A DNA stretch of 64,000 nucleotides from a virus. Its lineage: Duplodnaviria; Heunggongvirae; Uroviricota; Caudoviricetes. The position numbers were made by a program, and so were the translations under genes. Under the pieces are notes generated by a model. The model did no database searches, had not been told where the DNA came from, and worked only from the letters and a program-made list of their open reading frames with translations. The stretch covers positions 14,132 to 78,131 of IMG/VR virus record IMGVR_UViG_3300050011_000047; one strand, given 5' to 3'. Below are positions 8,597 through 60,702 of the stretch, piece by piece; the first letter of the stretch is position 1, and each line of letters begins with the position of its first letter.

Positions 8597-9075
8597 TGCC
8601 GTCCGGGCTCCCGCCGATCAGCCCCGCCGAGTTGACTGCCGACCTCATCCGCCGGTACGGCTCCGCCATCACGAACGAGGGCTATGCCCTCGTGGTAGGC
8701 CCGGCCACGGACGCGCAACAACAACAGGGCGTCGTAACGCTCATGGCGGCGGGCTTGCCGTTGATCGAGAAGTACGCGCCGTTGCAGTGGCACCGCTCGC
8801 AGGCGCGGTGCATCGCGGGCGACCTCATCACCGCCGACATCATCGCGCAGTTGGTGCAGCGCGACACGCACGGAGTCATCCGCAAGTTGTGCTTCCAGAA
8901 GCCGAAGGCCGAGTACCCCGAGGACACGGGGCGGTGGTTCCTCGTGCACATGGCGAACGTCACCGCCGGGCCGTCGCACCACTACGACTCACCCGAGACG
9001 TGGGAGTCGCTCCTGTTCATCGAGATGATGATTGGCACGGACGCCGTGGCGACCGGGCCTGACTTCCCCCAATAG
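8596..9075 (+). CDS. putative tail terminator protein
   Basis: ATGA-coupled to the gp10-like gene. Call is by position before the major tail protein. Confidence 0.35.
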   Translation: MPSGLPPISPAELTADLIRRYGSAITNEGYALVVGPATDAQQQQGVVTLMAAGLPLIEKYAPLQWHRSQARCIAGDLITADIIAQLVQRDTHGVIRKLCFQKPKAEYPEDTGRWFLVHMANVTAGPSHHYDSPETWESLLFIEMMIGTDAVATGPDFPQ

Positions 9076-9108
9076 GGGGTTGCGTTCGGCAGCGCCCGGC
9101 CCGATAAT

Positions 9109-9315
9109 GTGGGCATGCAAGCATACGGAATCTTCGAGCACCATCGCGAGCGCACGCCGACCGGCGGCGGGCTCGTCGCGCGGGCCGTGTACGACGACGG
9201 CTCGGCGCACGATCAGTTCAACTATGGCGGGCTCGTGCCGATCAAGGTCTACAAGACTGAACGCGGCGCAGACGCCTACGTGGATCGCAAGTACCGGGAG
9301 CGTGTAGGCTCCTAA
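9109..9315 (+). CDS. hypothetical protein
   Basis: GTG 9109 or ATG 9115. 66-68 aa. Confidence 0.3.
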   Translation: MGMQAYGIFEHHRERTPTGGGLVARAVYDDGSAHDQFNYGGLVPIKVYKTERGADAYVDRKYRERVGS

Positions 9316-9386
9316 TCGTTCGCAGCGTCCGCTACGGCGGGCCGACTGCCACGGAAGTGCCGACGGCCCTACGGGGCCGTTCGCGT

Positions 9387-9416
9387 GTCAAGTTTTTGGC
9401 ACAAAAACTTGTCAAG
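9387..9416. promoter_or_regulatory. perfect 10-3-10 inverted repeat CAAGTTTTTG-GCA-CAAAAACTTG (operator-like site, family member a)
   Basis: Read directly. No U-tract follows on either strand, so an intrinsic terminator is unlikely. Related sites at 31445, 59506, 60281 and 60725-60770. Confidence 0.45.
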
Positions 9417-9582
9417 CACGCGGGCGACCGACTGGCCGCATCTCGACTCCGGCGGCGCGCAGGTGACGGAGCACCGTCCCGCGCGAGCAGCGCAGGTACT
9501 TGGCCGTCTTCCGCGTGCTGCCGTGGATCGCATACCACTTCACGACGAGCGCGGTGTCCTTCGGCTTGAGTGTGCGGGCCAT
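9412..9582 (-). CDS. small helix-turn-helix DNA-binding protein (56 aa), antisense within the structural operon
   Basis: Reverse-complement translation: MARTLKPKDTALVVKWYAIHGSTRKTAKYLRCSRGTVLRHLRAAGVEMRPVGRPRA. HTH at TRKTAKYLRCSRGTVLRHL. Its stop codon lies inside the palindrome at 9387-9416. Below the ORF-track cutoff. Confidence 0.4.
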   Translation of the reverse strand: MARTLKPKDTALVVKWYAIHGSTRKTAKYLRCSRGTVLRHLRAAGVEMRPVGRPRA

Positions 9583-9597
9583 CTCGCAATGGTACCA

Positions 9598-9612
9598 CTT
9601 TGATAGAATGCT
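9598..9612 (+). promoter_or_regulatory. extended -10 promoter TTTGATAGAAT upstream of gene 9640
   Basis: TGATAGAAT (TGn plus TAGAAT) lies about 30 nt before ATG 9640, with GGAGGGG in between. An identical TGATAGAAT occurs at 63340-63348. Confidence 0.3.
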
Positions 9613-9639
9613 GCGCGGAGGGGTACAGTCCTGATTGCG

Positions 9640-10086
9640 ATGGCATCCCCTTACGAGTATCCGGTCTACTTCGACTCCGACGCGGTTGCGGACGCGGGTT
9701 CGCCCGATCCGGGCACCGCTCTCCTGTTCCCGCCGCTTGCGGGCATCGCGGCGTACGACGTGTCGAGTCCTGACCTCTCGCGTGCAGCGTCGGCCATCTA
9801 CTTCAACGATGTCTCCCGCTGGCCCGCAACTGACGCGGGTACCGCGATTGCGCTTGCGACGACGATGGTGGACTCACCCGACGGCGCGGCGCTCGCCAAC
9901 TGGCTTGCTTCTGAGCACGGTCTTCTCCCCGGCATCCCGGTCGCAGTTCCGACCGGCCCGGATCAGGTGACCGACGACGAAGGTGAAGGGCGCACGGACA
10001 ACGAGGGCACGATCCCGTATGTCAATCCGGCGAACACGTCGAACCCGGATGCGATCTACGCTCTCAACTGGCTTCTGGACAACTAG
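9640..10086 (+). CDS. hypothetical (probable virion) protein
   Basis: 148-aa ORF between the neck genes and the major tail protein. Confidence 0.4.
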   Translation: MASPYEYPVYFDSDAVADAGSPDPGTALLFPPLAGIAAYDVSSPDLSRAASAIYFNDVSRWPATDAGTAIALATTMVDSPDGAALANWLASEHGLLPGIPVAVPTGPDQVTDDEGEGRTDNEGTIPYVNPANTSNPDAIYALNWLLDN

Positions 10087-10089
10087 GTC

Positions 10090-10674
10090 ATGGCAAACAC
10101 TCAGCCTTACGAGATTCTCGCAGGGCCGCTCTCGGTCTACTTCGCGCCGACGGAGACTCCGTTCCCGGCGATCACGGACACGGACGAGACGATCACGGAC
10201 GGCGGCACTTGGACGCCCATCGGATTCACGGAGGGCGGCATCAAGGTGGCGCACCCGCAGACGGTTGTCGAACTCCGCGCCGATCAGGTGACCGGCGTCA
10301 TCAAGGCCGTGCGCTCCGAGGAGGGTCTCGAAATCACGTTCGACATCGCCTCCTTGACTTTGGAGAATTACGCGCTCGCGCTGAATCAGGCGATCACCGG
10401 CCCCGGCACGGGTGCAGGCAAGAAGTACGTCAAGTTGTATAGGGGTGGATTTCAGGTTGAAACTTTCAGTCTCCTGTGTCGTCAGGGCCATCTTTCACCC
10501 TACGGTGATAAGCCCCTGAGTTTCGAGGTTCCGGTTGTCTTCGAGGCAGGCTCGCCGGAAGATACCCATTCGAAAGACAATAAAGCAGTGCTGGCCGTGT
10601 CACTTCACGCGATGGTTGACCCCAACCGGGCCGACGATTCTGAGTCCTTCGGTCGAGTCAACGCAGGCGACTGA
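10090..10674 (+). CDS. major tail protein
   Basis: 194 aa, directly upstream of the tail assembly chaperone/tape measure genes. The 3' portion (from ~10435) has markedly lower GC. Confidence 0.5.
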   Translation: MANTQPYEILAGPLSVYFAPTETPFPAITDTDETITDGGTWTPIGFTEGGIKVAHPQTVVELRADQVTGVIKAVRSEEGLEITFDIASLTLENYALALNQAITGPGTGAGKKYVKLYRGGFQVETFSLLCRQGHLSPYGDKPLSFEVPVVFEAGSPEDTHSKDNKAVLAVSLHAMVDPNRADDSESFGRVNAGD

Positions 10675-10740: not shown

Positions 10741-11202
10741 CTACTTACCACGCATACGACGAGCATTGTGACGCCAACGGCAGTTGTCACACCCTTCGGT
10801 TATGTAGTCGAGTGGCCCACCGCATCCGACGCACTCCGTCTTCAACGGCCCGACGACCGCTATGGATCGCACGGATTCCGCTTGCTCCTTCTTCACATCC
10901 GAAAGGTATGGCCACAGGATGCGGAGCACCTTCTCACCTTCCTCACGGTATGCATGAAACACGTAGTGCGGCTTGGTGCCCGGTGTCTTTCCGCTCGTGT
11001 GCGAGATGTACGGCCCGTATGGCCCGCCGACCTTGCCAGCGCCAACGGCAGCACAAAACCGGTCAAGCACGCGCCGATCAATCTGTCCGACCTGTACTCG
11101 CAAGTATGGGCGAGTGTGTTTTCCATCAACGGTCATTGCACCCGTGTGCCCCTCCCCATCGAAGAAGCCTGCGGCCCACGCGATTTCTGTTTTGTTCTCC
11201 AT
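10741..11202 (-). CDS. LAGLIDADG-family homing endonuclease (paralogue 1)
   Basis: MENKTEIAWAAGFFDGEGHTGAM... Low-GC island inserted between the major tail protein and chaperone genes. Paralogous to the genes at 35409-35819 and 49171-49518. Confidence 0.6.
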   Translation of the reverse strand: MENKTEIAWAAGFFDGEGHTGAMTVDGKHTRPYLRVQVGQIDRRVLDRFCAAVGAGKVGGPYGPYISHTSGKTPGTKPHYVFHAYREEGEKVLRILWPYLSDVKKEQAESVRSIAVVGPLKTECVGCGGPLDYITEGCDNCRWRHNARRMRGK

Positions 11203-11387
11203 AACAAGGAAGTCTAGCAGATGGAACCCGATCACATCGACGTTGACTTCTCCCCCACCCGCAGGCTCGTGAAGCGAGCGATCCGCGACTTGGAGGATGC
11301 CAACAAGGAACTCGCGCGGCTCGAAGAACGGTGCCTCGCGCTCGAAGCACGTCTCCTAGCCGAATACGGAATCGAAAGGAAGATCAC

Positions 11388-22037: not shown

Positions 22038-23756
22038 GACGCACCCGATCCTAAGAAGGTACGCGCAGCCGTCGAAAAGGCCAAGGAGGGCTCCGACGGC
22101 AAGGTGCTCAAGGTACTCTACCTCGACGCGCAGGGTGAGCCCGCAGGCGATTGGGCCTCGACGCAGTTGCCCGAGAATCCGTGGGAGACTGTGCAGGCCA
22201 CCACGCAGTTGATCGAGCCCCCGTTCCCTATGGGGCAGTTGACCTTCCTCGCGGAGATGCACCCGGTGCATTCATCGGCGCTCGAACAGAAGGCAGCGGA
22301 CGTGTGCGGCAAGGGATGGGAATGGATCGCGGATGATCCCGATGTAGCAGACGAAGACCTCCGTGACGAGATGGAGGACTGGTTCCAGTCGCTTGCACCG
22401 GACGAGTTCGACATGCGCGAACTCGTCAACACCGCGTGGCTCGATGAGGAGACGACCGGGTGGGGACTGCTCGAATGCGCACGTGATCCGCAGGGAGTCG
22501 TGCAGCGGCTCTACCACGTGCCCGCGCACACGGTCAAGACGCACAAGAACGGGTTTGCTCTCTGCCAGGTGCGCGACTCGCGCAAGATGTGGTTCCGTAG
22601 GTGGGGCTCCACTGACATCGCCGGGAAGCCGGTCGAGGTCAACATGCGCAACGGCTCAATCACGAACGTGCCGGAGGATCAGCGCGCGAACGACCTTCTC
22701 GTCATCAAGCGCCCGTCGCGGCGATCCACGTGGTACGGCATCCCCGGCTACATCTCCGCAATCGGATGGATCACGCTCGCGCTCGCAGCACGCGATGACA
22801 ACCTGTACTTCTTCTCCAACCGCCGCGAGCCCCGTTGGGCGATCATCCTCACCGGTATGGCCGAGGATACCGAGATTGAGGAAGATCTCCGGCGCGCGTT
22901 CACCGTGGACATGAAGCAGCCGTACCGAAATGTCATGGTACCGGTCGCAGGCAAGGACGCGAAGGTCACCTTCCAAGAGTTGTCGTCCACGGCGAAGGAC
23001 GGCTCGTTCGGGAACCTCGGGGATCGCGCCGACAAGGCCATCATGGTCGCACACCGCGTGCCCGCCGAGCGTCTTGCGAACTCCCAGGTTGGCGCTCTCG
23101 GCGGCAACGTCGCGTCCGAGTCGAACCGCGTCTACAAGGAAGGCGTCGTCGCTCCCGCGCAGGAGGTTCTCAACTCGCGCCTCAATCGCTTCATCGCGGT
23201 CGAGTTTGCCAAGTACAAGAATCAGGAGTACAAGAAGGGCGACAAGTCGATGTGGCTTCTCAAGATGGATGACCTCGACATCCGCTCCGACCGCGAGGAC
23301 ATGGATCAGGCGCTCATCCTGTTCCACGGCGATATGATTACGCTCCGGGAAGCGCGTCATCGGCTCGGCCTCGGCCCACTCATGAAGCCGAAGCCGGTCG
23401 CACAGAAGAACCCGGATGGTACGCCGAAGACGAACCCTGACCCGATCACGGGTGAGCCGACGCAGGTCTTCGGCCCGCCGATCCCCGGCGTAGACGACGA
23501 GGAGAACCCGGCAGTGGACATCAACGGCAACCCCGTACCGCCTGAGGAAGTCGAGTCCGAGTTCAATGACATGTTGTTCTCGCAGTTGCCGGGCGCGAGC
23601 GGTCAGGCCGGGCTCCCCGGTGGCGCTCCGCCTACCGGCACCGGCAAGTTGACGCCGGAAGTGAACAAGGCGCTCGCGTCTGACGTGCGTGAACTGCTCC
23701 GTTCATCCTACGCGACACATGATCGTATCGCGCGGATGGCCGGAGATGACGGCTAG
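22035..23756 (+). CDS. portal protein
   Basis: 573 aa with an acidic C-terminus, immediately upstream of and overlapping a MuF-like gene (canonical portal-MuF pairing). Assignment is by size and context. Confidence 0.55.
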   Translation: MDAPDPKKVRAAVEKAKEGSDGKVLKVLYLDAQGEPAGDWASTQLPENPWETVQATTQLIEPPFPMGQLTFLAEMHPVHSSALEQKAADVCGKGWEWIADDPDVADEDLRDEMEDWFQSLAPDEFDMRELVNTAWLDEETTGWGLLECARDPQGVVQRLYHVPAHTVKTHKNGFALCQVRDSRKMWFRRWGSTDIAGKPVEVNMRNGSITNVPEDQRANDLLVIKRPSRRSTWYGIPGYISAIGWITLALAARDDNLYFFSNRREPRWAIILTGMAEDTEIEEDLRRAFTVDMKQPYRNVMVPVAGKDAKVTFQELSSTAKDGSFGNLGDRADKAIMVAHRVPAERLANSQVGALGGNVASESNRVYKEGVVAPAQEVLNSRLNRFIAVEFAKYKNQEYKKGDKSMWLLKMDDLDIRSDREDMDQALILFHGDMITLREARHRLGLGPLMKPKPVAQKNPDGTPKTNPDPITGEPTQVFGPPIPGVDDEENPAVDINGNPVPPEEVESEFNDMLFSQLPGASGQAGLPGGAPPTGTGKLTPEVNKALASDVRELLRSSYATHDRIARMAGDDG

Positions 23757-26700
23757 CGCACTAGACCTCTCCGCCGAGCATCTCCGTCAGGTCGAGGAGT
23801 TGTACCTTCGCATCCGCGAGGCGGGGATCGAAGCCGACGCAGGCAGTGATGATCTTCTCGCACTCTCGCGCGAGCACAAGCGGCGCGTGAAGCATCTGTT
23901 CCTCGCGGTCGAGAAGATGCGGCGCAGCCCGCACCGGCAGGCCGTCCATGAGAAGTCGCACGCGCAGCGGCTCGCGCTTGAGCAGGTGTGGACGCAGCGG
24001 CTCCGGCTCCTCTCCGACCATCTCGTCAACGGCTTCGACATCGACGGGGCCTACGAGGTAGCCCGGCGGGCGTGGGTCACCCCGGCGGACGAGCCCCACG
24101 ACGGCATCTACGTGGACGAGCATGCGCCGGGGCGGCTCAAGAAGGCTCTCACGCCGCCGAAGAAGTCTGACCTCTCGGTGGTCGAGCACTGGCCCGGCAA
24201 GCGCGGGACGGCGGCTCGACTTGCGCTCAAGAGGGCGGCGACTACCGAGGGCGTCGAGGCGCTCGTGCTCCGCGACTCGACCGGCAACCCGATTGCCGTC
24301 GCAGCGGTCAAGGCGAGCCCCGGCGACCTGCACGTGGAGTTCCTTGCATCCGAGCCCGGCAAGGGCGCACAGATGATGCAGGAGTTGGCGAAGGTGGCGA
24401 AGAAGACCGGCTCCGGGCTCTCCCTGTTCTCTGTCCCCGAGGCGGCGCAGTTCTACGATGGGATCGGGATGGCGGCAGGCGACCGCGCCGGGCAGTACAT
24501 CATGACCCCTGCGCAGACGGCGGCATTCGCGGTGACCGGCGGCATTCTTCCTCCGGCGGGCTCGAAGGCGGCGGGTATGACCAAAACCGAGCAGGCAGGT
24601 GTGCAGCAGTTGATGCTCAACGCGATCCAGTCGAGCGGGACACCTGGCAGCGCCGACGTGAAGCGGGCACTCTCATCGGTCGAGAATCAGGCAGCATGGG
24701 AGCGCGGCGCGGCGACGCAGTACCTCGGGCTCGCGGTGCAGACGGCGGAGCAGGCCGGGCAGGTGGCGCTCGATCATCTCGGACTCCACAAGACGTTCGA
24801 GTTCGCGAACCCGCAGACGATGGTGGGCGACGCGACGGCGGTGCGCGGCTCGAAGGTGATTCAGTCCATGTACGGGGCGCACGTCGATGCGCTTACGAAC
24901 ATCATCACGGACGCCACTAACCCGGCAGCGCCGCAAACCATCGCGCAAGTCAAGGCGTCGATCCGCGAGCAGTGGCCGAAGTTGCAGACGTATCAGGTCG
25001 AGCGGATCGCACGCACGGAGACGGCGGCGGTGTGGATGTCCACGAGCGCGAACGCCTACGCGGCGAACGGCATCTCGCAGTTCGAGACTATCGTCGCCAC
25101 CGGCCCAAGCATCGGCGTCGAGAGCGAAGACCCGTGCGACGAGTGTGTGGCGGCGGCAGAGGACGTGCACTCGCTCGATGACGACCTCCCGCCGTGGCAC
25201 CCAAATGCGGTGCTTGGAGGTTCTACGTTTCTATCTTACGGTGAACCGCTCGAAGCGGTTCGTGCGCGCTACCGTGGCCTTTCCGTACTCATCCGTGCGG
25301 GGGAGCACGTGCTTACCATCGGGCCTAACCACCCGGTGATGACCCGGCGCGGGATGGTGCCTGCAAATCAGATTCGCGAAGGTGACGAGTTGGTCTACGA
25401 CAGACGCGCTAATCGGCAGGAAGGCGCGATACGCGCTATCACATCGGACATCGAAGACGTGCCACTCGTCGAGGATGCGTTCACGGCGCTCCTGTCTACG
25501 GGCACGTATGCGACCGTTCCCGTGACCCCCGATGATCTCCACTGCGACGGGGTATTCTGCGAGGGCGAAGTCGATGTTGTAAGGCCCGACGGCAACCTGC
25601 TGGCGGTACTCGATCCCCGAGGCATCAAGGAGATGCGCGAAGTCGCGTTCGAGGCTTCCAGCGCCGAGTACCCTCAACTCTCTCGTTTTCGCGCGAGCCT
25701 CACGCCGAGAGAGCGGGTCGATGTTTCCACGTCGAGCCTCGTGGCAGGCCATGAATCGCTTAGGTTTATTCGAGTCATTCATGTGGACTTTGTGGACTTC
25801 GAGGGATGGGCGTTCGATTTCTCGGTACAGGGTGGGATGTATCTCAGTAATGGCTTTATGGTATCAAACTGTCGATGCGAGGCCGTGCCGGTACTGGAGG
25901 ACACGGACGGCACGCCATGGCTTCCGCCGGACGAACCGTGGACGGGCGGCGGCGACGGCTCCGGTGACATGGCACCGGGCACATTGTTCGAGCCGATGCC
26001 TCCACCGGAGCAACTCGCGATGGAGTTTGCGCCGGGCACGGTTGCGCCGTCGGCGGACATCTTGCTCAAAGGCTCGCTTGCGCAGCAGACGGTGCAGGAA
26101 GAACTCGGCAACATCGGGCGCGTGCATCAAATCCCCGATCACGTTGATGTGCCTTCGGTCAAGGGCGCGGTACACAACTCCTACTCACCCGATGAGAACC
26201 GCATCTTCCTCAATCCTCGTCCCGCCGAAGGCGAGTATCTCAAGGGCACGAGCGTTGTTCACGAGTACGGGCACTTCGTGCAAGAGCAGCGTGTCGTCTC
26301 AATGAACGATCAGATTGCCGTGTCCGATATGGCCGAGGCCACGCCGGAGTGGGCGTCGTTCGAGCGGTACGACCAACAACCGAACGAGTTGTTCTCCCGC
26401 GTGTATCAGCAGTGGATCGCAACCAAGAACGCGGACGAAGTGAAGTTGGCGTTCTACAAGGCGCAAGGCAAGTTTTGGTCACCCGAGTCGTTCAAGCCTC
26501 TCGGCGCGAAGATGGATGAGGTCTTCGCTCCGCTCATGAAGCCGAAGTTCCCGGACGGCTCACCCAAACTCCCGGAGAAGACGCCCGACGCAGCGCCCGC
26601 ACCGAAGGCGGAGGAGTTCCCCGCACCACTCGTGATCGACGCTGCGACGTGGACTGAGAAGAAGGTAATCGAGACACTCGCGCCGTTCGAGGGACGCACC

Positions 26701-29700
26701 GTTCGCCTGACGGGCCAGGGGTTCAAGGGGCACGAGTACACGATGGAGGGCGAGTACAAGTTCGACAAGGAATCAGGCTACCCGCTCGTTGGGGATCGCA
26801 CCATCGGCACCGGCACGGACATGGTGCACGTCGAAGTGCAAGACTCCGGCGGCGCGTGGCACACGATTGCGGAGAAGCCGTTGTCCGAGCGTGCGCCGGT
26901 CGAGCCCGAGCCGACGTTCTCGAAGCCCGACGCACTCCCCACGTATTCGGGCAAGACCGTGGAACTGTCCGAGCGGTACAAACTCAAGGTGCCGAACAAG
27001 GAGTTGAAGGCGTCGGTCACGACGGCGCTCGATGACATCGCGAGCCGGATTAAACTCCCGGAGGAAGCACGCCCTGTGGACGTTACGCCGGGCTCCGGCA
27101 TGTCGTCAAACTTCACGCCCGCAGGTGTGCAGCGCGGTGTTGTCAAGGGTGCACGCATTCGTATCTCCACGAATCGCGGTACGCAATCGCATTTCGACCG
27201 CATCGACTCGACCTATCATGAATACGGGCACTACCTCGATTGGACGGGCCTTGGCGGCGCGGATGGTTGGGCGGGCACGCGGTACGGCTCCGAGTACGCA
27301 GCCGACATGAAACCGCTCATGCAGGCGTTCTTCGACTCGCCCGAGTACAAGCAGTGGCGCGACATCTACTCCGGTAAGTTCAAGCCCGGTGAGGGTGTCT
27401 ACGCGCCCAAGAGTCATGCTCGCTACATGAAGTCGAACGTCGAGTTGTTCGCTCGCGGCTTCGCGCAGTACATGTCCGAGGTCACTGGCAACGCGGAGTA
27501 CCGCGCGTTCGTGGCCGATCACGTCCCGCTTGAGAAGGGCGGGTGGTATTGGACGCCGGAGAACTTCGCGCCGATCAAGGACGAGTTCGACAGGTTGTTT
27601 GAGAAGCGAGGTCTACTCAAGGAGACGCCACCCGCGCCCGAGCCGTTGCCCGCACCTACACCCGAGCCCCTCGCGCCGGAGACGCCCGCGTTCGCGCCCA
27701 AGGAGCCGCTCACGCAAGATCAGCAGTTGGCCGTCAACGACTACACCGGCAGAGGCGGCGAGGGGCAGGAGGGCTACCTACGCACGAACCGTTGGCTCCG
27801 TGGGCTCAAGCAGACACACGGCGACCCGCTCGCGACGATCAAGAACCGCGTCGAGCATCTCGATGCAGCCATCGAGAGCGCGGCCCCGCTCGCGACGCCG
27901 ACGACCGTGTGGCGCGGTATCGGTAACTCTGAGTTCTATGGTGGCGGCGGCACGCTCAAGGTCGGTCAAGTGATCGAAGACCCGGCCTACCTCTCGACCT
28001 CTTCGACGCCGAAACTTCCGACCTCGTGGGCGGGCACTCACGGCGACCTGTGGGAAATCAAACTGCCGAAGGGGATGAAGGGCCTCGACGTGAACGCGGC
28101 CCTCAAGGACACACCCTACGGCCCACACGGGCTCGATCCGGCCACGACCAAGGAGGGCGAGATTATCCTCCCACGCAACACGCGCCTCGTGGTGGACGCG
28201 ATCAAGGAGCGTGTCACGACATACCCGAACGGGAACCGCGTGGTCGCACACGACGTTACAGCGCACGTGGAGAGCATCCCCGAGTTGCGCCCGCCGACGC
28301 CGGTCAAGGAGAACATCCCCGATCCGAACCCGGCAACTCCGCCACCGCCCCCGCCTCCGCCCCCGCCTCCGCCACCGGCACCCACTCCGGTGCATCCGAC
28401 GACTCCCGAGGCAACACCGGCCTCCACGACGAACAACCCGCCCCTCCCCGAGTGGCACGACTTCACGACGCCCTCCGGGCTCGAAGCCGGGCTCGCACAC
28501 TACGAGGGCAAGCAGGTGCGTCTGACGTTCACGTTCCCGAGCGGAGCAACTAAGAAGTTCACCGGGCTCGTTGAGCGCAACTCACGCGGGCAGATGATGG
28601 TGGATCGTTCGACGTTCCGCGAGTCAGCCGTCCCGAACATCACGGGCGTCGAGGTCAAGGTCGGCAGTCGCTTCAAGCCGTGGAAGGAATACGAGCGTAT
28701 GACGCCCGAGCAGCAGAATCCCGCGCCTCCGAAGCAGCGCACGGCATCCGGTTCGTCAGAGAAGCCGGTACCCGAGGGCGGTTACACGTTCCCGGACAAC
28801 GTACCGAGCGGTGTCCTCGGTGACGTACCGGCAACGCCGATCTTCGAGAACGTCGCGCATGCACAGGCGTTCGCAGAGAGGTACCTCGCACGTGAGGTCT
28901 ACCTCGGAAAGAACCCGGAACTCAAGGGCGTGCAAGAGGCGCTCGATGCGATGGCGCAAGTGCTGCGCCCGTTCGACTTGAAGATCGAGCGGTTGCAGGT
29001 CGAGCATGATCCGCGCTCCTCGGGGCTCGCGTACTACTCCTCGAATGCCACGAAGAAGATGCTCATTGACGGCAAGAAGCAGTATTGGTCAGGCGAACTC
29101 ATCCGCGCGCAGGCGCAGTTGTTCTCGAAGTCCAAGGCGGCGGCGGTGGGTGACAACCAAGCAGTGTTCGAGGCGAACAAGGCGAAGGAGATTCGCACGC
29201 GCGAGGACTGGATCGCACAGGCGGAAGAACGCCACACGTCACCCGAGAAGATCGCGCAGTACCGTCGTGAGATTGCCAACTTGGAAGCGGCGAAGCGGTG
29301 GTACATCGCGGCGGTTGATGGCGGTGCTGACGCCACCAAGGCGTTCATGTCGCACGAGGCTGCGCACATGCTCTCGCGTAACTTCGGACATGAAATCGCC
29401 GGAGTCAGCATCACGGAGGCGGGGCTCGCGCCGATCTTCACCACGCGACTTGAGTTGCACGGCGTCACGCAGGAGGAGCGTTGGTCAGTCTCGCAATACG
29501 GCGCGAGCGGCGACAAGGCGCGACAGGCTCAAAACTCGGAGTTGTTCGCAGAGGTTACGGCGGCGAAGATCAGCGGGCACTATGACCTCGTGCCCCTCAA
29601 CATCCGCGAGGCATACGAGGAGACGCTCGGCTACATCACGCAGGCTGACATCGAGGCGAAGGCAGCGGCGAACAAGGCCCGAGATGCGGCGGTCGAGGCG

Positions 29701-29757
29701 AAGCGCGTACAGAAGGCCGGGCTCGAATCGGTGCGCAAGCGGGTTGGGCTACACTAG
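23746..29757 (+). CDS. giant MuF-like virion protein: MuF domain interrupted by an intein, two HEYGH zincin-like motifs, an ADP-ribosyltransferase-like domain, a poly-Pro linker and a C-terminal domain
   Basis: ATG 23746 after CCGGAG. Translation has ERIARTETAAVW...DLPPWHPN[221 aa]CRCE (Mu F signature PPxHPNCRC split); TSVVHEYGHF and STYHEYGHY; ...TTVWRGIGN...AYLSTSS...KEGEIILPR (R/STS/ExE); [14 protein letters not shown]. Confidence 0.7.
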   Translation: MTASALDLSAEHLRQVEELYLRIREAGIEADAGSDDLLALSREHKRRVKHLFLAVEKMRRSPHRQAVHEKSHAQRLALEQVWTQRLRLLSDHLVNGFDIDGAYEVARRAWVTPADEPHDGIYVDEHAPGRLKKALTPPKKSDLSVVEHWPGKRGTAARLALKRAATTEGVEALVLRDSTGNPIAVAAVKASPGDLHVEFLASEPGKGAQMMQELAKVAKKTGSGLSLFSVPEAAQFYDGIGMAAGDRAGQYIMTPAQTAAFAVTGGILPPAGSKAAGMTKTEQAGVQQLMLNAIQSSGTPGSADVKRALSSVENQAAWERGAATQYLGLAVQTAEQAGQVALDHLGLHKTFEFANPQTMVGDATAVRGSKVIQSMYGAHVDALTNIITDATNPAAPQTIAQVKASIREQWPKLQTYQVERIARTETAAVWMSTSANAYAANGISQFETIVATGPSIGVESEDPCDECVAAAEDVHSLDDDLPPWHPNAVLGGSTFLSYGEPLEAVRARYRGLSVLIRAGEHVLTIGPNHPVMTRRGMVPANQIREGDELVYDRRANRQEGAIRAITSDIEDVPLVEDAFTALLSTGTYATVPVTPDDLHCDGVFCEGEVDVVRPDGNLLAVLDPRGIKEMREVAFEASSAEYPQLSRFRASLTPRERVDVSTSSLVAGHESLRFIRVIHVDFVDFEGWAFDFSVQGGMYLSNGFMVSNCRCEAVPVLEDTDGTPWLPPDEPWTGGGDGSGDMAPGTLFEPMPPPEQLAMEFAPGTVAPSADILLKGSLAQQTVQEELGNIGRVHQIPDHVDVPSVKGAVHNSYSPDENRIFLNPRPAEGEYLKGTSVVHEYGHFVQEQRVVSMNDQIAVSDMAEATPEWASFERYDQQPNELFSRVYQQWIATKNADEVKLAFYKAQGKFWSPESFKPLGAKMDEVFAPLMKPKFPDGSPKLPEKTPDAAPAPKAEEFPAPLVIDAATWTEKKVIETLAPFEGRTVRLTGQGFKGHEYTMEGEYKFDKESGYPLVGDRTIGTGTDMVHVEVQDSGGAWHTIAEKPLSERAPVEPEPTFSKPDALPTYSGKTVELSERYKLKVPNKELKASVTTALDDIASRIKLPEEARPVDVTPGSGMSSNFTPAGVQRGVVKGARIRISTNRGTQSHFDRIDSTYHEYGHYLDWTGLGGADGWAGTRYGSEYAADMKPLMQAFFDSPEYKQWRDIYSGKFKPGEGVYAPKSHARYMKSNVELFARGFAQYMSEVTGNAEYRAFVADHVPLEKGGWYWTPENFAPIKDEFDRLFEKRGLLKETPPAPEPLPAPTPEPLAPETPAFAPKEPLTQDQQLAVNDYTGRGGEGQEGYLRTNRWLRGLKQTHGDPLATIKNRVEHLDAAIESAAPLATPTTVWRGIGNSEFYGGGGTLKVGQVIEDPAYLSTSSTPKLPTSWAGTHGDLWEIKLPKGMKGLDVNAALKDTPYGPHGLDPATTKEGEIILPRNTRLVVDAIKERVTTYPNGNRVVAHDVTAHVESIPELRPPTPVKENIPDPNPATPPPPPPPPPPPPPAPTPVHPTTPEATPASTTNNPPLPEWHDFTTPSGLEAGLAHYEGKQVRLTFTFPSGATKKFTGLVERNSRGQMMVDRSTFRESAVPNITGVEVKVGSRFKPWKEYERMTPEQQNPAPPKQRTASGSSEKPVPEGGYTFPDNVPSGVLGDVPATPIFENVAHAQAFAERYLAREVYLGKNPELKGVQEALDAMAQVLRPFDLKIERLQVEHDPRSSGLAYYSSNATKKMLIDGKKQYWSGELIRAQAQLFSKSKAAAVGDNQAVFEANKAKEIRTREDWIAQAEERHTSPEKIAQYRREIANLEAAKRWYIAAVDGGADATKAFMSHEAAHMLSRNFGHEIAGVSITEAGLAPIFTTRLELHGVTQEERWSVSQYGASGDKARQAQNSELFAEVTAAKISGHYDLVPLNIREAYEETLGYITQADIEAKAAANKARDAAVEAKRVQKAGLESVRKRVGLH
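25207..25869 (+). other. putative mini-intein (221 aa) inserted between N and C of the MuF HPN/CRC motif
   Basis: Begins AVLGGSTFLSYGE (Ala1). Block B-like LTIGPNHPV (TxxH). C-terminal ...GMYLSNGFMVSN followed by Cys +1. Local GC is lower than the flanking extein. Confidence 0.5.
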
Positions 29758-31004: not shown

Positions 31005-31208
31005 CTACGGAGTCGGCTCGCCGTCCCGAGGCACGAGCACGAACTGCTCGGCGTTGTTGTGTGGTTGGAGCCGAGAGGCGACGACGGCGCAGTCCAACTC
31101 ATCCTTGTGCTCGGGGCAGATGACTTGGTACGTGCGGCGGTCGGAGGGGTCTTCCACGTAGTCGCCCGTGTGGTACTCCGCGCCCTCGACCCAAGGACGG
31201 ATAATCAC
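31005..31208 (-). CDS. hypothetical protein
   Basis: 67 aa, ATGA-coupled to the upstream gene. Confidence 0.35.
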   Translation of the reverse strand: MIIRPWVEGAEYHTGDYVEDPSDRRTYQVICPEHKDELDCAVVASRLQPHNNAEQFVLVPRDGEPTP

Positions 31209-31444
31209 GCCACACCCATGAGCCGGTCGAGTTCACGCTCGCGGAGCGCGCGCTTGATGGCCTTCTTGCGGAGCGCCGGAGTGCCGTGGCTTGCGGCTGC
31301 CATCCGCTTCTCCTCGTAGAGCGCGTCGATCTTCGCGGAGAGGGACTCGACTTCGGCCTTGTTCGTGGCGGTTGCGGGATCGGCCCACAACGCGCGGCGC
31401 TCCTCGGAGAGCCGCTCAATCTCAGATGCAATGTCTTTGGCCAT
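31205..31444 (-). CDS. small coiled-coil hypothetical protein
   Basis: MAKDIASEIERLSEERRALWADPATATNKAEVESLSAKIDALYEEKRMAAAS... Start codon lies directly downstream of the palindromic site at 31445-31474. Confidence 0.4.
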   Translation of the reverse strand: MAKDIASEIERLSEERRALWADPATATNKAEVESLSAKIDALYEEKRMAAASHGTPALRKKAIKRALRERELDRLMGVA

Positions 31445-31474
31445 GTCAAGTTTTCTCGCACAAAAACTTATCAC
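31445..31474. promoter_or_regulatory. operator-like site (family member b): GTCAAGTTTTCTCGCACAAAAACTTATCAC
   Basis: Imperfect inverted repeat CAAGTTTT / AAAACTT around a GCA centre, closely matching 9387-9416. Confidence 0.4.
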
Positions 31475-31507
31475 ACCGGAGCCCCTTTTTACGCGGGGGC
31501 TCCGGTG
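31474..31507 (-). terminator. rho-independent terminator for the ftsH-SPFH transcript
   Basis: 12-bp perfect stem CACCGGAGCCCC / GGGGCTCCGGTG. On the minus-strand RNA it is followed by UGAUAAGUUUUUG. Confidence 0.5.
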
Positions 31508-31520
31508 CAAAAAGCATTGG

Positions 31521-32465
31521 TTACGGGTATGTAGAACTCCCCGGCGTGGATGGGACATTGAGGAACGGGATAACGCCTGTGCTAGAGCCGACAAGCGTGC
31601 TCGGCAGGATGCCGTTCCACCTGACGTAGTACTGCCATGACAGGAGTAGAGCCGTCACGGATGCGGCGACTAGTTTGTTCGCCTTGGCCTGCGCCGTTGC
31701 TTTGATGAGCACCGAGCGAGCCGTCGCCTCAGCGTTGATGATAGTCTGCGCCTTGAGAGCGCGCTTGGCGGCGATCAGGTTCTCTTGCTGTAACGCCTGT
31801 TGATGCGCGATGATCTTGGCCTTGACGGCTGCGACGAACGCCGGATCGAAGATCGCGTCCTCGATGTTGACGTAATCGACCACGATGCCGTAGCCCTTGA
31901 GTTGATCGGTCAACTGACCCTGAATCGTCAGTGCGAGCGCGTCCCGCTCCTTGGCGAAGTCGATGGCCTGAATCTGACCAACCGCCGCCTTGGTGCGCTG
32001 GTAGAGCGCAGGCTGAATGACCGTGCTCGCGTACTGCAAGCCGATGCGCTGGTACAGGAACGGGGCCTTGGCCGGATCAACGTGGTAGTTGACCGAGGCC
32101 ACGACGGTGATTTCCTGCAAGTCTGCGGACTGCGCGAACACCTTGTCCGAGTACAACTTCTGCGTTCGCACGGACATCACCGTGAGATGCTGTAGCCACG
32201 GCAGAAGAAATGAGACACCCTCGCCACGCGGCGTCTGTTGGACGCCGCCGTTCCACTGGAAGATCACGCCCCTGTATCCTGCGGGGACGACGCCGATGGC
32301 AGGCACGATCAGGAAGGACGCGAGCACGGACACCGCTGCCCTCCGTAGTGCGCGCTTAACGACGGGTGCATCCTTGCGATGCCGGAATGCCTGCACCAAG
32401 AAGAAGACGGCGACGCCTCCGAACATGGCCCAAATCACCGGCTGTATGAGAGCCGCGTAAGTCAT
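31521..32465 (-). CDS. SPFH/band-7 (stomatin/prohibitin/HflK/C-like) membrane protein
   Basis: N-terminal TM, then ...GYRGVIFQWNGGV...LTVMSVRTQ...EITVVASVNYHV... (SPFH core) and a coiled-coil AEATARSVLIKATAQAKANKL. Strong AAGGAGG SD. Confidence 0.65.
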   Translation of the reverse strand: MTYAALIQPVIWAMFGGVAVFFLVQAFRHRKDAPVVKRALRRAAVSVLASFLIVPAIGVVPAGYRGVIFQWNGGVQQTPRGEGVSFLLPWLQHLTVMSVRTQKLYSDKVFAQSADLQEITVVASVNYHVDPAKAPFLYQRIGLQYASTVIQPALYQRTKAAVGQIQAIDFAKERDALALTIQGQLTDQLKGYGIVVDYVNIEDAIFDPAFVAAVKAKIIAHQQALQQENLIAAKRALKAQTIINAEATARSVLIKATAQAKANKLVAASVTALLLSWQYYVRWNGILPSTLVGSSTGVIPFLNVPSTPGSSTYP

Positions 32466-32477
32466 ACTGCCTCCTTC

Positions 32478-32993
32478 TTAGTTTCCATAGCGAGGAACGC
32501 TATGGGTTGGATTGTTGGTGCGAGAGTTACCACCGTGGCCTCCGGTGCGTGAGTTACCACCGCTGTTAGTGCCGGTACCGGAGAGTGCAAAAGTGTTCGG
32601 GTACGGACGCGCACGATTCCATGCGTTCGTGATGTTGCCGTCGTATGTCGGCCAATACTCGTTCGTCTGCAAGATGCCGATGCACGCAACCTTGGTGCCC
32701 TGCCATCCGTTGTCCACGACGGCCTGACAGAAGGAGCCCTGCACGACACCCATGTCCGGCTTGTCGGACATCACCTTGGCGCGCTGCACGCGGCACATCG
32801 CCGCGAGGTTTGCATCTCCCACTCCTTGCGACTTCATGAAGGAGTCGCCTGAGCAATACCCTTGGAGTTGACTATCAGCAAGCCGCACAAGATTCGCGTC
32901 GTATGGTGGGATGAAGCCGACCGGCATCGCGATATAGACGAACCCGAGGATGATCGTAAGGGCTCCTGCGAGCCCGAGTAACTTACGGCTCAT
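32478..32993 (-). CDS. membrane-anchored/secreted hypothetical protein between ftsH and the SPFH gene
   Basis: MSRKLLGLAGALTIILGFVYIAMPVGF... (TM), Cys-containing ectodomain, Gly/Asn/Ser-rich tail. ATGA overlap with the ftsH stop. Confidence 0.45.
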   Translation of the reverse strand: MSRKLLGLAGALTIILGFVYIAMPVGFIPPYDANLVRLADSQLQGYCSGDSFMKSQGVGDANLAAMCRVQRAKVMSDKPDMGVVQGSFCQAVVDNGWQGTKVACIGILQTNEYWPTYDGNITNAWNRARPYPNTFALSGTGTNSGGNSRTGGHGGNSRTNNPTHSVPRYGN

Positions 32994-34978
32994 GACTCGA
33001 AGCCCCCGAGTAGGTTGTGAATCTCGTCGCCGGTCACAGTGCCCTCATCGTACAGGAGCCGGGCGACGGCCTCGATGTCGTCCTTGTGCGCCGTGAGCAG
33101 CGTGCGGCAGGCTTCGAGCGCCTCAGCGAGAATACCCTCGGCCTGCTTCTGCACCAAGCGGTTGTCCGCAGGGTAGACGCCAATCTGAGAAGCGAGCCCG
33201 TAGCCGACCATGCGCACCGCGTCCTGTGTGGCACTTGCGGCGTCTCCGCCATGCCCGTTGGTTGTGGTACCGATAAGGAGTTGCTCGGCCACGCGGGAGG
33301 CAAGACTCACCTGAATGTCGGCAAGCAACTCGGCGCGTGTCATAAGCCAATCCTCATGCAACGGGGTCGGCGCAACCATGCCGCCCGTCTCCCCTCGGCG
33401 CTCGATGCTCGCGAACCAAATGTGCTGCCTCGTGCGGCAGAGGAGATGGAAGGCTACTGCGTGCCCGGCCTCGTGGACGGCGACGTTCCAGCGGGCTTCC
33501 TCGCGCTCGAAGGGGCCATCGGACTCCCCGAAGCGTGTCCACAGCATCGCGTGCATTAGGTCGTAGAAGCGCACAATGCCGGGGTCATCCCGTTCGTCCC
33601 GGAAACTAACGAGCAACGCCTCGTTCACGATGTCCTGAATCTCGGCTCCGGTGCCTCGCGCGTGGTTGCGCGCGGCCCATTCGATGTTCGCAGGGGTGAG
33701 GTCATTCGTGACCTTACGAAGGTAGCCCTCATACGTCCGGCGGCGACCATCGACCTTCGGGAAGGTGACGTGAATCTTGCGCCCGAACCGCCCGGCGCGG
33801 AGCAGCGCGGGGTCGAGGCGATCCATCATGTTCGTTGCGCCGATCATGAGATACTTGTACTCATACGGAGCCATAGGCTTGAACCCGGCAAAGACGAGAA
33901 GACGATTCAACGGGCCACGCGGCTCCTCCATCCCGTCCATCGCGGAGAGGAACGCTTCGAGGGTACCCATGCCGCCGCCACCGCCGCCGACCACGATGCT
34001 GCGCGTATCGTCAGACGCGGCAGGACGACTAAACGGCACGCATCCGGGCGCTCGACATTCTGCCGGAGCGGCCCCGAGTACATCCCCGCCACGTGAGCCG
34101 AGAGAGTCAATCTCGTCAATGAACACGATGACGCCACCGTAGCGCCGAGCCAACTTGCGAATCTCGCGGAACAGAGTCCACACCTTGAGCAAGTTGATGC
34201 CGACGAACGTCGCTTGGAACGCGCCCGGAGGCACGAGGATGAGCGGCTTCGAGGAGTAGTTCGCCGCTGCCTTCGCGAGATACGTCTTTCCGGTACCCGG
34301 CGGCCCGTAGAGAAGTAGGCCCTTCGGCATGTACCCGCCAGCCGCCTCGATGTGGTCGGAGTCTTCAAGCAGTTTCACCTGTTCCATAACCTTCTGCTTG
34401 GCGTCGTCCTGACCCCACACGTCATCGAACGTGACATTGACTGTGCCGGGCATGACGACCTTGTATGAGCCGACCTTGACCATCGCATAGAACATGATCC
34501 CGAGTTGGAATAATGTCAGCGCAACCATCACGGCGAACTGTATGAACATCGGGAGGTTCTCGACCGCGAGACGGGGCGCGAGGATGACGCACTGTATCGC
34601 GCTTGAGCAGCGCGTGGTGAGTGCGTTGACCATCATGCCAAAGACGTAGAGGGCTAGCAGCCAAGTTGCCACACGCTGCACCTTCAACCACGATTGCTTC
34701 GAGACTACAGCCGCACGCAATCGGGCTCGCTTTTCAACCCTTGCGGTCTTCGCTACCCAACTCTCATCGACTTCCAAGCGCGCGTGGTGGAACTCGCGCA
34801 GCACGAGGAAGGCGAGAGCGAAGATGGCTAGGCGTGCAGGGAACGAAATGGAGAACGGGAACGGTGATGCCCACTCGCTCGCGGCCACATACGCGATGAT
34901 GATGACCGGAAGTTTGACCCGCTCGAAGAACGGCTTAGGTGGGCGTAGCGCTATGGGGCGCTTCTCAACTTCACTCAT
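32990..34978 (-). CDS. ftsH: FtsH-like membrane AAA+ zinc metalloprotease
   Basis: N-terminal TM segments. Walker A LLYGPPGTGKT, Walker B VIVFIDEIDS, second region of homology ATNMMDRLDPALLRAGRFGRKIHV, zinc site HEAGHAVAFH. Start ATG 34978 preferred over TTG 35014. Confidence 0.75.
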   Translation of the reverse strand: MSEVEKRPIALRPPKPFFERVKLPVIIIAYVAASEWASPFPFSISFPARLAIFALAFLVLREFHHARLEVDESWVAKTARVEKRARLRAAVVSKQSWLKVQRVATWLLALYVFGMMVNALTTRCSSAIQCVILAPRLAVENLPMFIQFAVMVALTLFQLGIMFYAMVKVGSYKVVMPGTVNVTFDDVWGQDDAKQKVMEQVKLLEDSDHIEAAGGYMPKGLLLYGPPGTGKTYLAKAAANYSSKPLILVPPGAFQATFVGINLLKVWTLFREIRKLARRYGGVIVFIDEIDSLGSRGGDVLGAAPAECRAPGCVPFSRPAASDDTRSIVVGGGGGGMGTLEAFLSAMDGMEEPRGPLNRLLVFAGFKPMAPYEYKYLMIGATNMMDRLDPALLRAGRFGRKIHVTFPKVDGRRRTYEGYLRKVTNDLTPANIEWAARNHARGTGAEIQDIVNEALLVSFRDERDDPGIVRFYDLMHAMLWTRFGESDGPFEREEARWNVAVHEAGHAVAFHLLCRTRQHIWFASIERRGETGGMVAPTPLHEDWLMTRAELLADIQVSLASRVAEQLLIGTTTNGHGGDAASATQDAVRMVGYGLASQIGVYPADNRLVQKQAEGILAEALEACRTLLTAHKDDIEAVARLLYDEGTVTGDEIHNLLGGFES

Positions 34979-35000
34979 GAGTCGCAGTGTAGCGGAAGTT

Positions 35001-35027
35001 GCGGCCCCCTGCAAGGCAAGGGGCCGC
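35001..35027. other. 8-bp GC hairpin GCGGCCCC...GGGGCCGC between the holin-like gene and ftsH
   Basis: Read directly. No U-tract follows. Confidence 0.3.
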
Positions 35028-46822: not shown

Positions 46823-47292
46823 TTCTTTCTCCTTGTCTTGGCGGCAGCACTCATCCTTGCTCGCTGCTCCGGGGTTCTTTTTTGTCCACGGCATTTTTCA
46901 GCACGCTTACGGTTGTTCTCTGCCGACTCCTCCGGGTGTTCTTTGTGCCATCTTCGCAAGGATGCGCTGCGCTTAGCATTGGCTTCGGGTGTATGGGCAA
47001 ACTTGATACCAATTTTGTGAACACGCTTACCTGCCTCTAGCATGTGCGGCTTGGTTATCCCTTGATGATGGTGACGAATATGACAACTAGCATGTGTAGG
47101 GGAGAGGTTCTCCTTCGTGTTGTTATCTTTGTCTTCATCACAGTGGTGGATGTGTAATCGAGTTCTTGGGCTTTCGTCATCAATCTTAATCGCAGCACCA
47201 CAGAACACGCACTCCCAAGGACCGAGCCCATAAGACGCAAAGAACACTGCTTCACACTTTCTCCTTCTATTCATCGCGAAGCCAATCTGCAT
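46819..47292 (-). CDS. HNH homing endonuclease in a low-GC island
   Basis: ...CVFCGAAIKIDDESPRTRLHIHHCDEDKDNNTKENLSPTHASCHIRHH... GC drops over 46880-47620. Start uncertain (47328, 47292 or 47274). Confidence 0.55.
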   Translation of the reverse strand: MQIGFAMNRRRKCEAVFFASYGLGPWECVFCGAAIKIDDESPRTRLHIHHCDEDKDNNTKENLSPTHASCHIRHHHQGITKPHMLEAGKRVHKIGIKFAHTPEANAKRSASLRRWHKEHPEESAENNRKRAEKCRGQKRTPEQRARMSAAAKTRRKK

Positions 47293-59157: not shown

Positions 59158-59513
59158 GCGAGCGCCTTGCGGATCGCTTCTTGACGCCGAACACCCATGT
59201 AGGGGTAGATACTCTCCATGAGATCGCGAGCCTTTGAGTATGCGAGGCGAACACGGAACACGGGCTTATGTGTAGGACGATCCTTCCGCACACCCTTGGC
59301 GTCAACCTTCGAGCCGAGGAGATGCGCGATACGCTCGGCAACGTCTTCGTCTGTCGTCTCGCAGACGACGAGCGGGTATGTACGCCCGTGCGGGGAACAG
59401 GTGATGAATGATCCCTCACCTTCAAGATACCCTGCCAAGTAGATGAGCCGCTCGTGCTCGGTAGCAGCGCGAAGCGCGTCCTTATCATGGCCGAACAGGT
59501 CATCCGTGCTCAA
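59154..59513 (-). CDS. LAGLIDADG-like homing endonuclease whose N-terminus copies the primase N-terminus
   Basis: TTG start after an AGAGGAG SD. MSTDDLFGHDKDALRAA (primase: MSGDLFGPDKDSLRAA), then LAGYLEGEGSF. ATGA overlap with the primase start. Confidence 0.5.
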   Translation of the reverse strand: MSTDDLFGHDKDALRAATEHERLIYLAGYLEGEGSFITCSPHGRTYPLVVCETTDEDVAERIAHLLGSKVDAKGVRKDRPTHKPVFRVRLAYSKARDLMESIYPYMGVRRQEAIRKALA

Positions 59514-59570
59514 GTTTTCTCCTCTTTCGTTGGCGAGAGTGTAGCAGAAGTTTAGAACTTGGGAGACGCG

Positions 59571-60211: not shown

Positions 60212-60288
60212 GAGTGCCTCATTGCTCACTGCTTCTCCTTCGTTGGTTTGATCGCACCGTAGTAGGATGGCGGGGCGGATGCAAGTTT

Positions 60289-60702
60289 TTAGACTTGGGG
60301 CGTCTTCCGGGCTCGCATGTAGTGCATCATGCACAGGCCCTTGGCCTTGTATGGGCGGTCGCAGCCGGGCAAGGAGCAGTGTTCCGGCGCTTCTCTCGCT
60401 GCGACTCGTGAGGAGAAGGTCGCTCGTATCTGCCGGGCTTCTTCCTGACGTGCTTCCACCCACAGGCGAATCTCCTCGATGATGGCCGGGGTGAACGTGA
60501 GGTCGAACCACTCACCGTGCGAATGGTAGTCGGCATACTGCTCGTGCAACGCATGCTCAATGCGCCACGTACCGGGGAACGTGCCGATGAGTTTGAGCGG
60601 TACCGGCGAGTTAGCGCGGAGCGTGGTAAGACGTAAGAGCGGTGCCTCCGACAAACCAATCTTGGTCTTGCCTCCGCCTGTGATGAAGTAGACGTGCTTC
60701 AT
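60289..60702 (-). CDS. GIY-YIG (T5orf172-type) endonuclease with C-terminal zinc finger
   Basis: MKHVYFITGGGKTKIGLSEAPLLRLTTLRANSPV... C-terminal CSLPGCDRPYKAKGLCMMH. SD GGAGG. Stop codon lies inside the CAAGTTTTT site at 60281-60300. Confidence 0.5.
   Translation of the reverse strand: MKHVYFITGGGKTKIGLSEAPLLRLTTLRANSPVPLKLIGTFPGTWRIEHALHEQYADYHSHGEWFDLTFTPAIIEEIRLWVEARQEEARQIRATFSSRVAAREAPEHCSLPGCDRPYKAKGLCMMHYMRARKTPQV

Follow-up and report, generated by a model that had tools for sequence, protein, structure and literature searches.

In the Cluster A mycobacteriophages, the immunity repressor (gp71 in phage L5) is bound at stoperators, which are asymmetric and oriented 13-bp sites of sequence GGTGGMTGTCAAG present in 20–30 copies per genome. 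Inverted repeats are used in a different context by the AbiE type IV toxin–antitoxin systems, where AbiEi of Streptococcus agalactiae and Rv2827c of Mycobacterium tuberculosis repress their own operons through such sites (PMC3985639, PMC7319586). A recent preprint ranks AbiE fourth in abundance among anti-phage systems, states that its infection trigger is unknown and proposes, purely as a hypothesis, the sequestration of AbiEi by viral DNA, with the resulting activation of AbiEii (bioRxiv 10.64898/2026.01.19.700257). Here we analyze palindromic sites in a 64,000-nucleotide stretch (the window) of a Caudoviricetes phage genome, positions 14,132 to 78,131 of IMG/VR record IMGVR_UViG_3300050011_000047, for which an initial annotation had proposed a dispersed, stoperator-like operator system with a 56-aa helix-turn-helix (HTH) protein, HTH56, as the candidate cognate repressor. 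The comparisons reported below point instead to a family of boxes that accompanies DUF6088-type AbiEi antitoxin genes in bacteria and plasmids, and of which the phage may carry orphan copies.

The family, designated DUF6088/AbiEi-box palindromes and defined in the present analysis, has the consensus TGTCAAGTTTT-N8-AAAACTTGACA, that is, inverted arms of 10–11 bp around an 8-nt spacer of variable sequence, with 22 arm positions scored. The full, decayed and partial copies in the window are the following:

Positions 9386–9414, no strand assigned: box 1, TGTCAAGTTTTTGGCACAAAAACTTGTCA, composed of TGTCAAGTTTT-TGGCACA-AAAACTTGTCA, with one arm mismatch and a 7-nt spacer.
Positions 31444–31473, no strand assigned: box 2, TGTCAAGTTTTCTCGCACAAAAACTTATCA, composed of TGTCAAGTTTT-CTCGCACA-AAAACTTATCA, with two arm mismatches and an 8-nt spacer.
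Positions 60745–60766, no strand assigned: weak site 3, AAGTTT-N10-AAACTT, in which the core alone is kept, with the family spacing.
Positions 59511–59518, plus strand: a lone CAAGTTTT half-arm that falls short of a full site, located where a LAGLIDADG gene starts with TTG.
Positions 60282–60289, plus strand: a second lone CAAGTTTT half-arm, likewise short of a full site, which covers the TAA stop codon of the MUG113 gene.

Box 1 matches 21/22 consensus arm positions, has a spacer 1 base below the family norm of 8 and is unchanged in the strain contigs L177 and L181; its inner 10-3-10 palindrome, CAAGTTTTTG-GCA-CAAAAACTTG (9389–9411), is perfect, and it overlaps GTCAAGTTTTTGGCACAAAAACTTGTCAAG, found at 9387–9416, which holds the HTH56 stop codon (TGA), as the initial annotation had stated. 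The variant it had placed at 31445–31474 is a true second member, box 2, which matches 20/22 arm positions, keeps the family spacing and abuts a minus-strand ATG beside a strong hairpin. The remaining variants fared less well: those claimed at 59506–59520 and 60281–60300 consist of the 8-mer CAAGTTTT only, the partner arm being absent, and are not full sites at up to 6/22 mismatches, and the three claimed in 60725–60770 reduce to one core-only palindrome, weak site 3. Boxes 1 and 2 are genuine and far beyond chance, since a full-site scan with up to 4 mismatches gave 2 sites in the window versus 0 in 30 shuffles and the palindrome pattern was matched in 0/100 shuffles; the two sites at up to 2/22 arm mismatches are joined by none further up to 6 mismatches. 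The half-arm CAAGTTTT also exceeds the chance frequency against which the motif was to be measured (6 occurrences on both strands versus 0.41 expected), although 3/6 lie within the two full sites and the solitary copies, at 26469, 59511 and 60282, represent a mild excess. No further box was found in the 18.4 kb of the same genome lying outside the window, the site census covering ~82 kb of the 91.8-kb genome (91,834 bp), to part of which the window is 100% identical.

The affiliation of these boxes emerges from bacterial and plasmid sequences. Collections were scanned with exact patterns, and the genome (one per species) and metagenome scans were anchored on the GCAC spacer; among the many matches of the latter two, the G+C-rich ones carried TGT...ACA flanks that the pattern had not demanded. 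In Vicinamibacterales (four metagenome-assembled genomes, MAGs), Acidiferrales, Planctomycetia, cyanobacteria and further contigs, the box is located ~30–60 nt upstream of a two-gene operon, of which the first product matches Pfam DUF6088 and AbiEi_4 and the second matches AbiEii, and the same arrangement of box and operon is present on plasmids of Pontibacter and Emticicia (Bacteroidota), where the products bear the RefSeq names "DUF6088 family protein" and "nucleotidyl transferase AbiEii/AbiGii toxin family protein". The link between box and DUF6088 gene, usually with the AbiEii toxin gene next, spans Acidobacteriota, Planctomycetota, Cyanobacteria and Bacteroidota plasmids, and the phage boxes match this same family in their arm sequences.

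Searches that started from the protein led back to the box. In plasmids, the box was found upstream in 4/4 DUF6088 matches, three of them Pontibacter plasmids that had also been recovered independently by the box DNA search; the fourth, from Hymenobacter, has a perfect 38-bp palindrome ahead of the gene and Fic, not AbiEii, downstream. In IMG/VR, 4/4 DUF6088 homologs were accompanied by the exact box or, in more distant ones, by a symmetric co-varying version of equal overall length, either TGTCCAGTTT...AAACTGGACA (TGTCCAG...CTGGACA) or TGTCAGAA-N12-TTCTGACA, and a regulator would be expected to co-vary with its binding site in this way. The DUF6088-family proteins with the same box share just 27–34% pairwise identity. 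TTGACA is not a promoter hexamer in Bacteroidota, and thus the conservation of the box is not imposed by RNA polymerase. Taken together, these comparisons suggest that the palindrome is most likely the autoregulatory operator of the DUF6088-type AbiEi antitoxin family, a branch that is essentially unstudied, since the full-text literature search yielded just three papers in which the name occurs, two of them listed with one occurrence each; the same kind of search for the arm sequences returned noise only.

Other matches and explanations were considered and set aside. A sigma-70 promoter with TTGACA as the −35 element was rejected as a general explanation, TAnnnT at 16–18 nt being found 9 times versus ~7 at control offsets (196 half-sites); a good −10 at 17 nt is present in the individual bacterial loci L025, L108 and L134, and the phage boxes are without one. 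A repeat in an Oscillospiraceae MAG and hairpins in Parabeggiatoa are chance or lineage-specific matches of the GCAC-anchored scans and are not counted as family members. The former, in MAG Lab288P1bin2, is a genome-wide intergenic repeat that resembles repetitive extragenic palindromes, with at least nine copies (L081, L084, L087, L090, L091, L097, L099, L104 and L110), one of them between pgk and tpiA, and is made up of a terminator-like hairpin, then CAAGTTTTTGACGCACAAAAACTTG (9-nt spacer) and then the palindrome TTGTCAAGGACTGGTCCTTGAC.

The exact box was also found in 60 viral contigs with 27–65% GC. In 59/60 the spacer is exactly 8 nt long and variable in sequence, a combination that reads as the signature of a dimeric DNA-binding protein and not of a hairpin loop. 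The box is adjoined by abiE in only one of these contigs, the other 59 being orphans, and the boxes of the phage studied here are likewise orphans, none being in the autoregulatory position 30–60 nt upstream of a DUF6088/AbiEi gene. Clustering of the open reading frames (ORFs) flanking the 60 viral boxes gave lineage-specific families only and no common neighbor gene, PHROGs assignments of the genes ending at the box revealed no theme (endolysin, HNH endonuclease, methyltransferase, MazG, major head protein), and no viral locus had a second box within ~10 kb of the first. A 30-mer nearly identical to the phage box is carried by the unrelated phage L001, which is of the P22-portal type, G+C-rich and without detectable protein similarity to the window, and in which the terminator of the major head gene precedes the box; in L003, also G+C-rich and related to the window via a DUF932 gene (66% identity), the box comes after a terminator hairpin too. 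An association of boxes with contig ends was dropped, being certain for L001 only. Separately, the AT-rich viral contigs L114, L118, L126, L132, L137, L141, L156, L172 and L173 have the exact box inside a ~410-aa helicase-like gene, which encodes ...QVFG.ENLT... at that point; the gene is conserved and the search demanded exact arms.

These observations are consistent with boxes 1 and 2, and the decayed site 3, being orphan sites at which an AbiEi-type dimer, provided in trans, would act as a roadblock or be retained as in a sink, a reading to which we assign slightly less than even odds (about 0.45). According to this proposal, a dimer of a winged-HTH regulator would bind the two 10–11-bp arms, about two helical turns apart, and at the bacterial loci the bound dimer would occlude the promoter and so produce autoregulation. 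The phage boxes would be occupied in trans, by a host AbiEi-type antitoxin or by a phage protein of equal specificity, because no such gene is present in the 82 kb examined. At the gene boundaries where they are located (box 1 between the head-completion and tail genes, box 2 at the first base of a 79-aa ORF, and site 3 in the MUG113 leader), a bound dimer could serve as a roadblock or occluder of its surroundings, and also as a sink that takes up the protein. A further step, in which the phage boxes titrate host AbiEi away from its own promoter and toxin, appears doubtful; if it occurred, titration on infection and replication might trigger AbiE abortive infection or, alternatively, serve as a decoy that disarms or reprograms the system. 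No earlier report of AbiEi boxes in phage genomes was found.

The elements that surround the two boxes in the phage bear on this reading and on its rivals:

Positions 9363–9380, plus strand: GC-rich hairpin, ACGGCCC-tacg-GGGCCGT; fold of 9320–9430, z = −5.0.
Positions 9412–9582, minus strand: HTH56, a 56-aa ORF with its TGA stop inside box 1, G+C at third codon positions (GC3) of 0.86 and TACCAT-N6-ATG upstream.
Positions 31208–31444, minus strand: coiled-coil ORF of 79 aa with its start at box 2, without a Shine–Dalgarno sequence and without a −10 element.
Positions 31474–31507, minus strand: strong hairpin, CACCGGAGCCCC...GGGGCTCCGGTG, z = −4.6, which ends the Band7/SPFH gene unit.

Convergent genes flank box 1, which overlaps a stop codon and has the hairpin at 9363–9380, downstream of the plus-strand 68-aa gene, just ahead of it. 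At box 2, the order on the minus strand is Band7/SPFH gene, strong hairpin, box 2 and ATG of the 79-aa ORF, the outermost base of the box being the A of that ATG. Weak site 3 is located 43–64 nt upstream of the T5orf172/MUG113 gene and ~30 nt downstream of the promoter-like motif TGATAGAAG.

Several observations weigh against the proposal of orphan AbiEi sites. Binding of the DUF6088 proteins to the box is a prediction made on comparative evidence, as are all occupancy and effect in the phage, and tblastn found no AbiEi/DUF6088 homolog in the window. The relatives L004 and L007 are without boxes at the equivalent positions: in L004 the HTH56 ortholog is present, but the sequence downstream is unrelated and the box is missing, and in L007 the ortholog of the 79-aa ORF has TACAAT-N6-ATG, a standard leaderless promoter, in place of box 2. 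The boxes are therefore not conserved regulatory sites of the adjoining genes, and are gained and lost. The 7-nt spacer of box 1 is matched in just 1/60 viral-contig boxes and could impair a dimer specific for N8; in addition, the right arm deviates in the same manner (TTGTCA or TTATCA) in box 1, box 2 and the box of L001, and all of them share the GCACA spacer, which points to a shared origin or to a binder that differs slightly. The abiE boxes of Vicinamibacterales-type Acidobacteria have this GCACA spacer too, which makes such bacteria a lead to the host. About half of the ~46 non-redundant viral boxes are inside long ORFs, and 13 of the ~24 intergenic ones begin 0–17 nt past a stop codon, a position equally compatible with a hairpin at gene ends or with a small mobile element. 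Finally, the same box precedes a RelE/XRE pair in Acidobacteria contigs.

In this last case (L055, L111 and ~15 near-identical metagenome contigs, with symmetric TGTCAAG or TATCAAG variants), the box precedes, by ~70 nt, a toxin–antitoxin pair, RelE-like and XRE/MqsA-like, which is present in place of abiE. Either cross-regulation or the replacement of a cassette behind a retained operator is possible, the former because AbiEi of Streptococcus suis, as cited in bioRxiv 10.64898/2026.01.19.700257, is reported to regulate a second toxin–antitoxin system.

The rival that survives best, although it seems rather unlikely, regards the phage boxes as gene-end RNA or DNA hairpins (terminators, processing sites or stabilizers) spread from phage to phage as a small mobile or recombining palindrome, in which case the likeness to the AbiEi box would reflect shared DNA ancestry and not a shared binder in the phage. 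The clustering just past stop codons favors this view, as does the position of box 1 on a stop codon between convergent genes, and the boxes of the window, L001 and L003 all come after terminator hairpins; in AT-rich phages, runs of A and T flank the box in the manner of a bidirectional terminator, and both the relatives lacking boxes, which imply gain and loss, and the near-identical 30-mer in an unrelated phage would be accommodated by a mobile palindrome. Nevertheless, the arm sequence is conserved instead of freely co-varying, the spacer is fixed at 8 nt, which makes a poor loop, and the arm mismatches of boxes 1 and 2 are uncompensated. The stems of the two boxes are A/U-rich, neither is followed by a T-run (the initial annotation had already remarked that U-tracts were missing) and the terminator scanner reports none at either, so that the element is no intrinsic terminator; U-tracts are absent from the boxes of the GC-rich phages, Rfam 15 at the gathering threshold gave zero matches across the whole window, and about half of the viral boxes are within ORFs.

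The explanation put forward originally, that HTH56 is the cognate repressor and the palindromes its operators in a small phage regulon, now appears distinctly unlikely. HTH56 looks like a real gene, as the initial annotation had assumed, given its GC3, its HTH matches (HTH_50, HTH_23 and HTH_38 in Pfam, weak and sub-threshold) and a syntenic ortholog in L004, a related viral contig (65% identity); the TACCAT-N6-ATG ahead of it fits leaderless promoter geometry. In favor of this explanation, box 1 overlaps its stop codon, the protein is a small tri-helical HTH, and its source annotation reads "DNA invertase Pin-like". The layout of outer hexamers and A/T tracts is used by resolvase and invertase HTH domains, and the comparison of the box with res and hix sites offers a lead only. 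Against a role as the binder, the gene has box 1 at its 3′ end and not at its promoter, no palindrome was found within 4 kb on either side of the L004 ortholog, no HTH56 homolog is present in the other box-bearing loci (the 13-kb L001 included), and it is DUF6088 genes that the box accompanies across phyla. The only other distinct homolog, P0002 (74% identity), overlaps the end of a same-strand HNH_3 endonuclease ORF by one base, as an antisense insert among structural genes, and since it directly follows that ORF, HTH56 is more likely to be a DNA-binding module of a homing endonuclease, or a remnant of one. A recombinase is not indicated, because HTH56 consists of the HTH alone, with no Resolvase domain match; tblastn among cultured phages gave no match, and only insignificant matches were obtained with PDB sequences.

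Least probable of all is a site-specific recombination or homing site at the borders of mobile cassettes (homing endonuclease genes or toxin–antitoxin cassettes), for which the resemblance of 28–30-bp inverted arms around an 8-nt variable center to recombinase core sites (lox, FRT, res) is a lead only, and which, despite the sites and half-sites of the window that adjoin homing-endonuclease-like genes (the HTH56/HNH-module remnant, MUG113 and LAGLIDADG), the L134 box 1 nt past an HNH endonuclease gene and the accessory cassettes abiE, relE and Fic beside the box in bacteria, is countered by the lack of a recombinase catalytic domain near any box, by a common bacterial neighbor that is specifically DUF6088, whichever the toxin, and by insertions defined by neither a target-site duplication nor a presence/absence pair.

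Should titration of AbiEi by the phage boxes prove true, the first concrete candidates for viral AbiEi sequestration would be boxes 1 and 2. An operator is in any case predicted for the DUF6088 branch of AbiEi, a 30-bp box across at least four bacterial phyla, and its occurrence without the genes in the present phage and in dozens of unrelated viral contigs provides a testable handle on the binding of AbiEi to phage DNA. Even if the phage copies were mere gene-end hairpins or relics, the stoperator reading would still be corrected and the antitoxin operator would still be predicted.

The window has ~63% G+C, with structural genes on the plus strand to ~29.7 kb and replication and accessory genes on the minus strand beyond. 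Megablast found no close cultured relative, and the phage PolA has only 34% identity to those of Arthrobacter and Microbacterium phages. Next to box 2, the Band7/SPFH gene is accompanied by a gene for an FtsH-like AAA+/M41 protease, two genes upstream with one ORF between (31521–35014, minus strand); the two also occur together in the relative L007, a membrane-protease module unusual for a phage. After the tail genes, positions 23689–29757 (plus strand) encode a polyvalent protein (2022 aa) that carries LPD1 and ADP-ribosyltransferase exoenzyme domains and may be an injected effector. Free-standing homing-endonuclease-like genes are unusually numerous (~400–860, 10741–11235, ~46900–47260, 59154–59513 and 60289–60702), namely two low-GC inserts of the HNH type, a pair of LAGLIDADG genes and a single T5orf172/MUG113 gene; several break co-directional gene blocks, and the half-arms and site 3 are at the borders of three genes of this type.

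An extended −10-like sequence, TGATAGAAT, occurs exactly at 9601–9609 (plus strand), 47515–47523 (minus strand) and 63350–63358 (plus strand), versus ~0.1 by chance in a rough base-composition estimate, with a one-mismatch copy at 60798–60806 (minus strand), ~30 nt upstream of weak site 3; ACTT(G)TGATAGAAT is the longer context common to the two plus-strand copies, and the copies are probably a phage promoter family. In the co-occurring strain contig L177, no single-nucleotide polymorphisms (SNPs) are found across 8878–10406 (1.5 kb), with 4–5% divergence on either side, and two in-frame deletions are present, of 60 nt (9166–9225, in the 68-aa gene) and 36 nt (9948–9983). The comparison of L177 with the window indicates recent inter-strain recombination across the head–tail junction; its SNP blocks are mosaic, and a homing-type tract centered on the HTH gene and box was not found.

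With regard to known systems, the sites of serine recombinases (res site I, hix/gix) have in common with the boxes a 26–28-bp pseudo-palindrome, outer hexamers of the type TGTC... or TATC..., inner A/T tracts and, at box 1, a neighbor gene source-named Pin-like; nevertheless, no catalytic domain is present here, the matches to res and hix are weak and the family is tied to DUF6088 regulators. The dif/Xer, IHF, sigma-54, LexA, HAIR, RamB, KorA and phi29 p4 motifs presumably do not correspond either, given a misfit in geometry or orientation. Stoperators share with the boxes a TGTCAAG/CTTGACA core, the placement of short sites at gene boundaries where they could block transcription, and a GC-rich, actinophage-like genome; the boxes differ from them in being palindromic and not oriented, with 2–3 copies (two full sites plus weak site 3 across ~82 kb), and in the lack of a co-occurring repressor. 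As copy number, symmetry and cognate repressor all differ, this is not a stoperator system, and what stands of the original proposal is its operator-like part, that is, a probable protein-binding palindrome, now placed in a cross-phylum family with fixed geometry at antitoxin promoters.

The AbiE operators are also not identical to the box, since PabiE of S. agalactiae (IR1/IR2) and Prv2827c of M. tuberculosis (IR1–IR4) consist of 23-bp inverted-repeat units, arranged 23-3-23 or with 13-bp gaps, instead of the 11-8-11 arrangement found here; the regulator here belongs to the uncharacterised DUF6088 subfamily, and abiE does not accompany the phage copies, which are orphans. Nevertheless, binding by the winged-HTH antitoxin has been shown for the S. 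agalactiae and M. tuberculosis subfamilies (PMC3985639, PMC7319586), the outer half-sites are alike in their TGT...TTTT-like sequence (TGTTGCTTTTA in S. agalactiae versus TGTCAAGTTTT here), and in both cases palindromic boxes occupy the promoter of an AbiEi-family antitoxin gene with a DUF1814/AbiEii toxin gene next. Of the known systems, AbiEi autoregulation is the closest, and the bacterial box is a probable addition to it, with a new subfamily and a new geometry.

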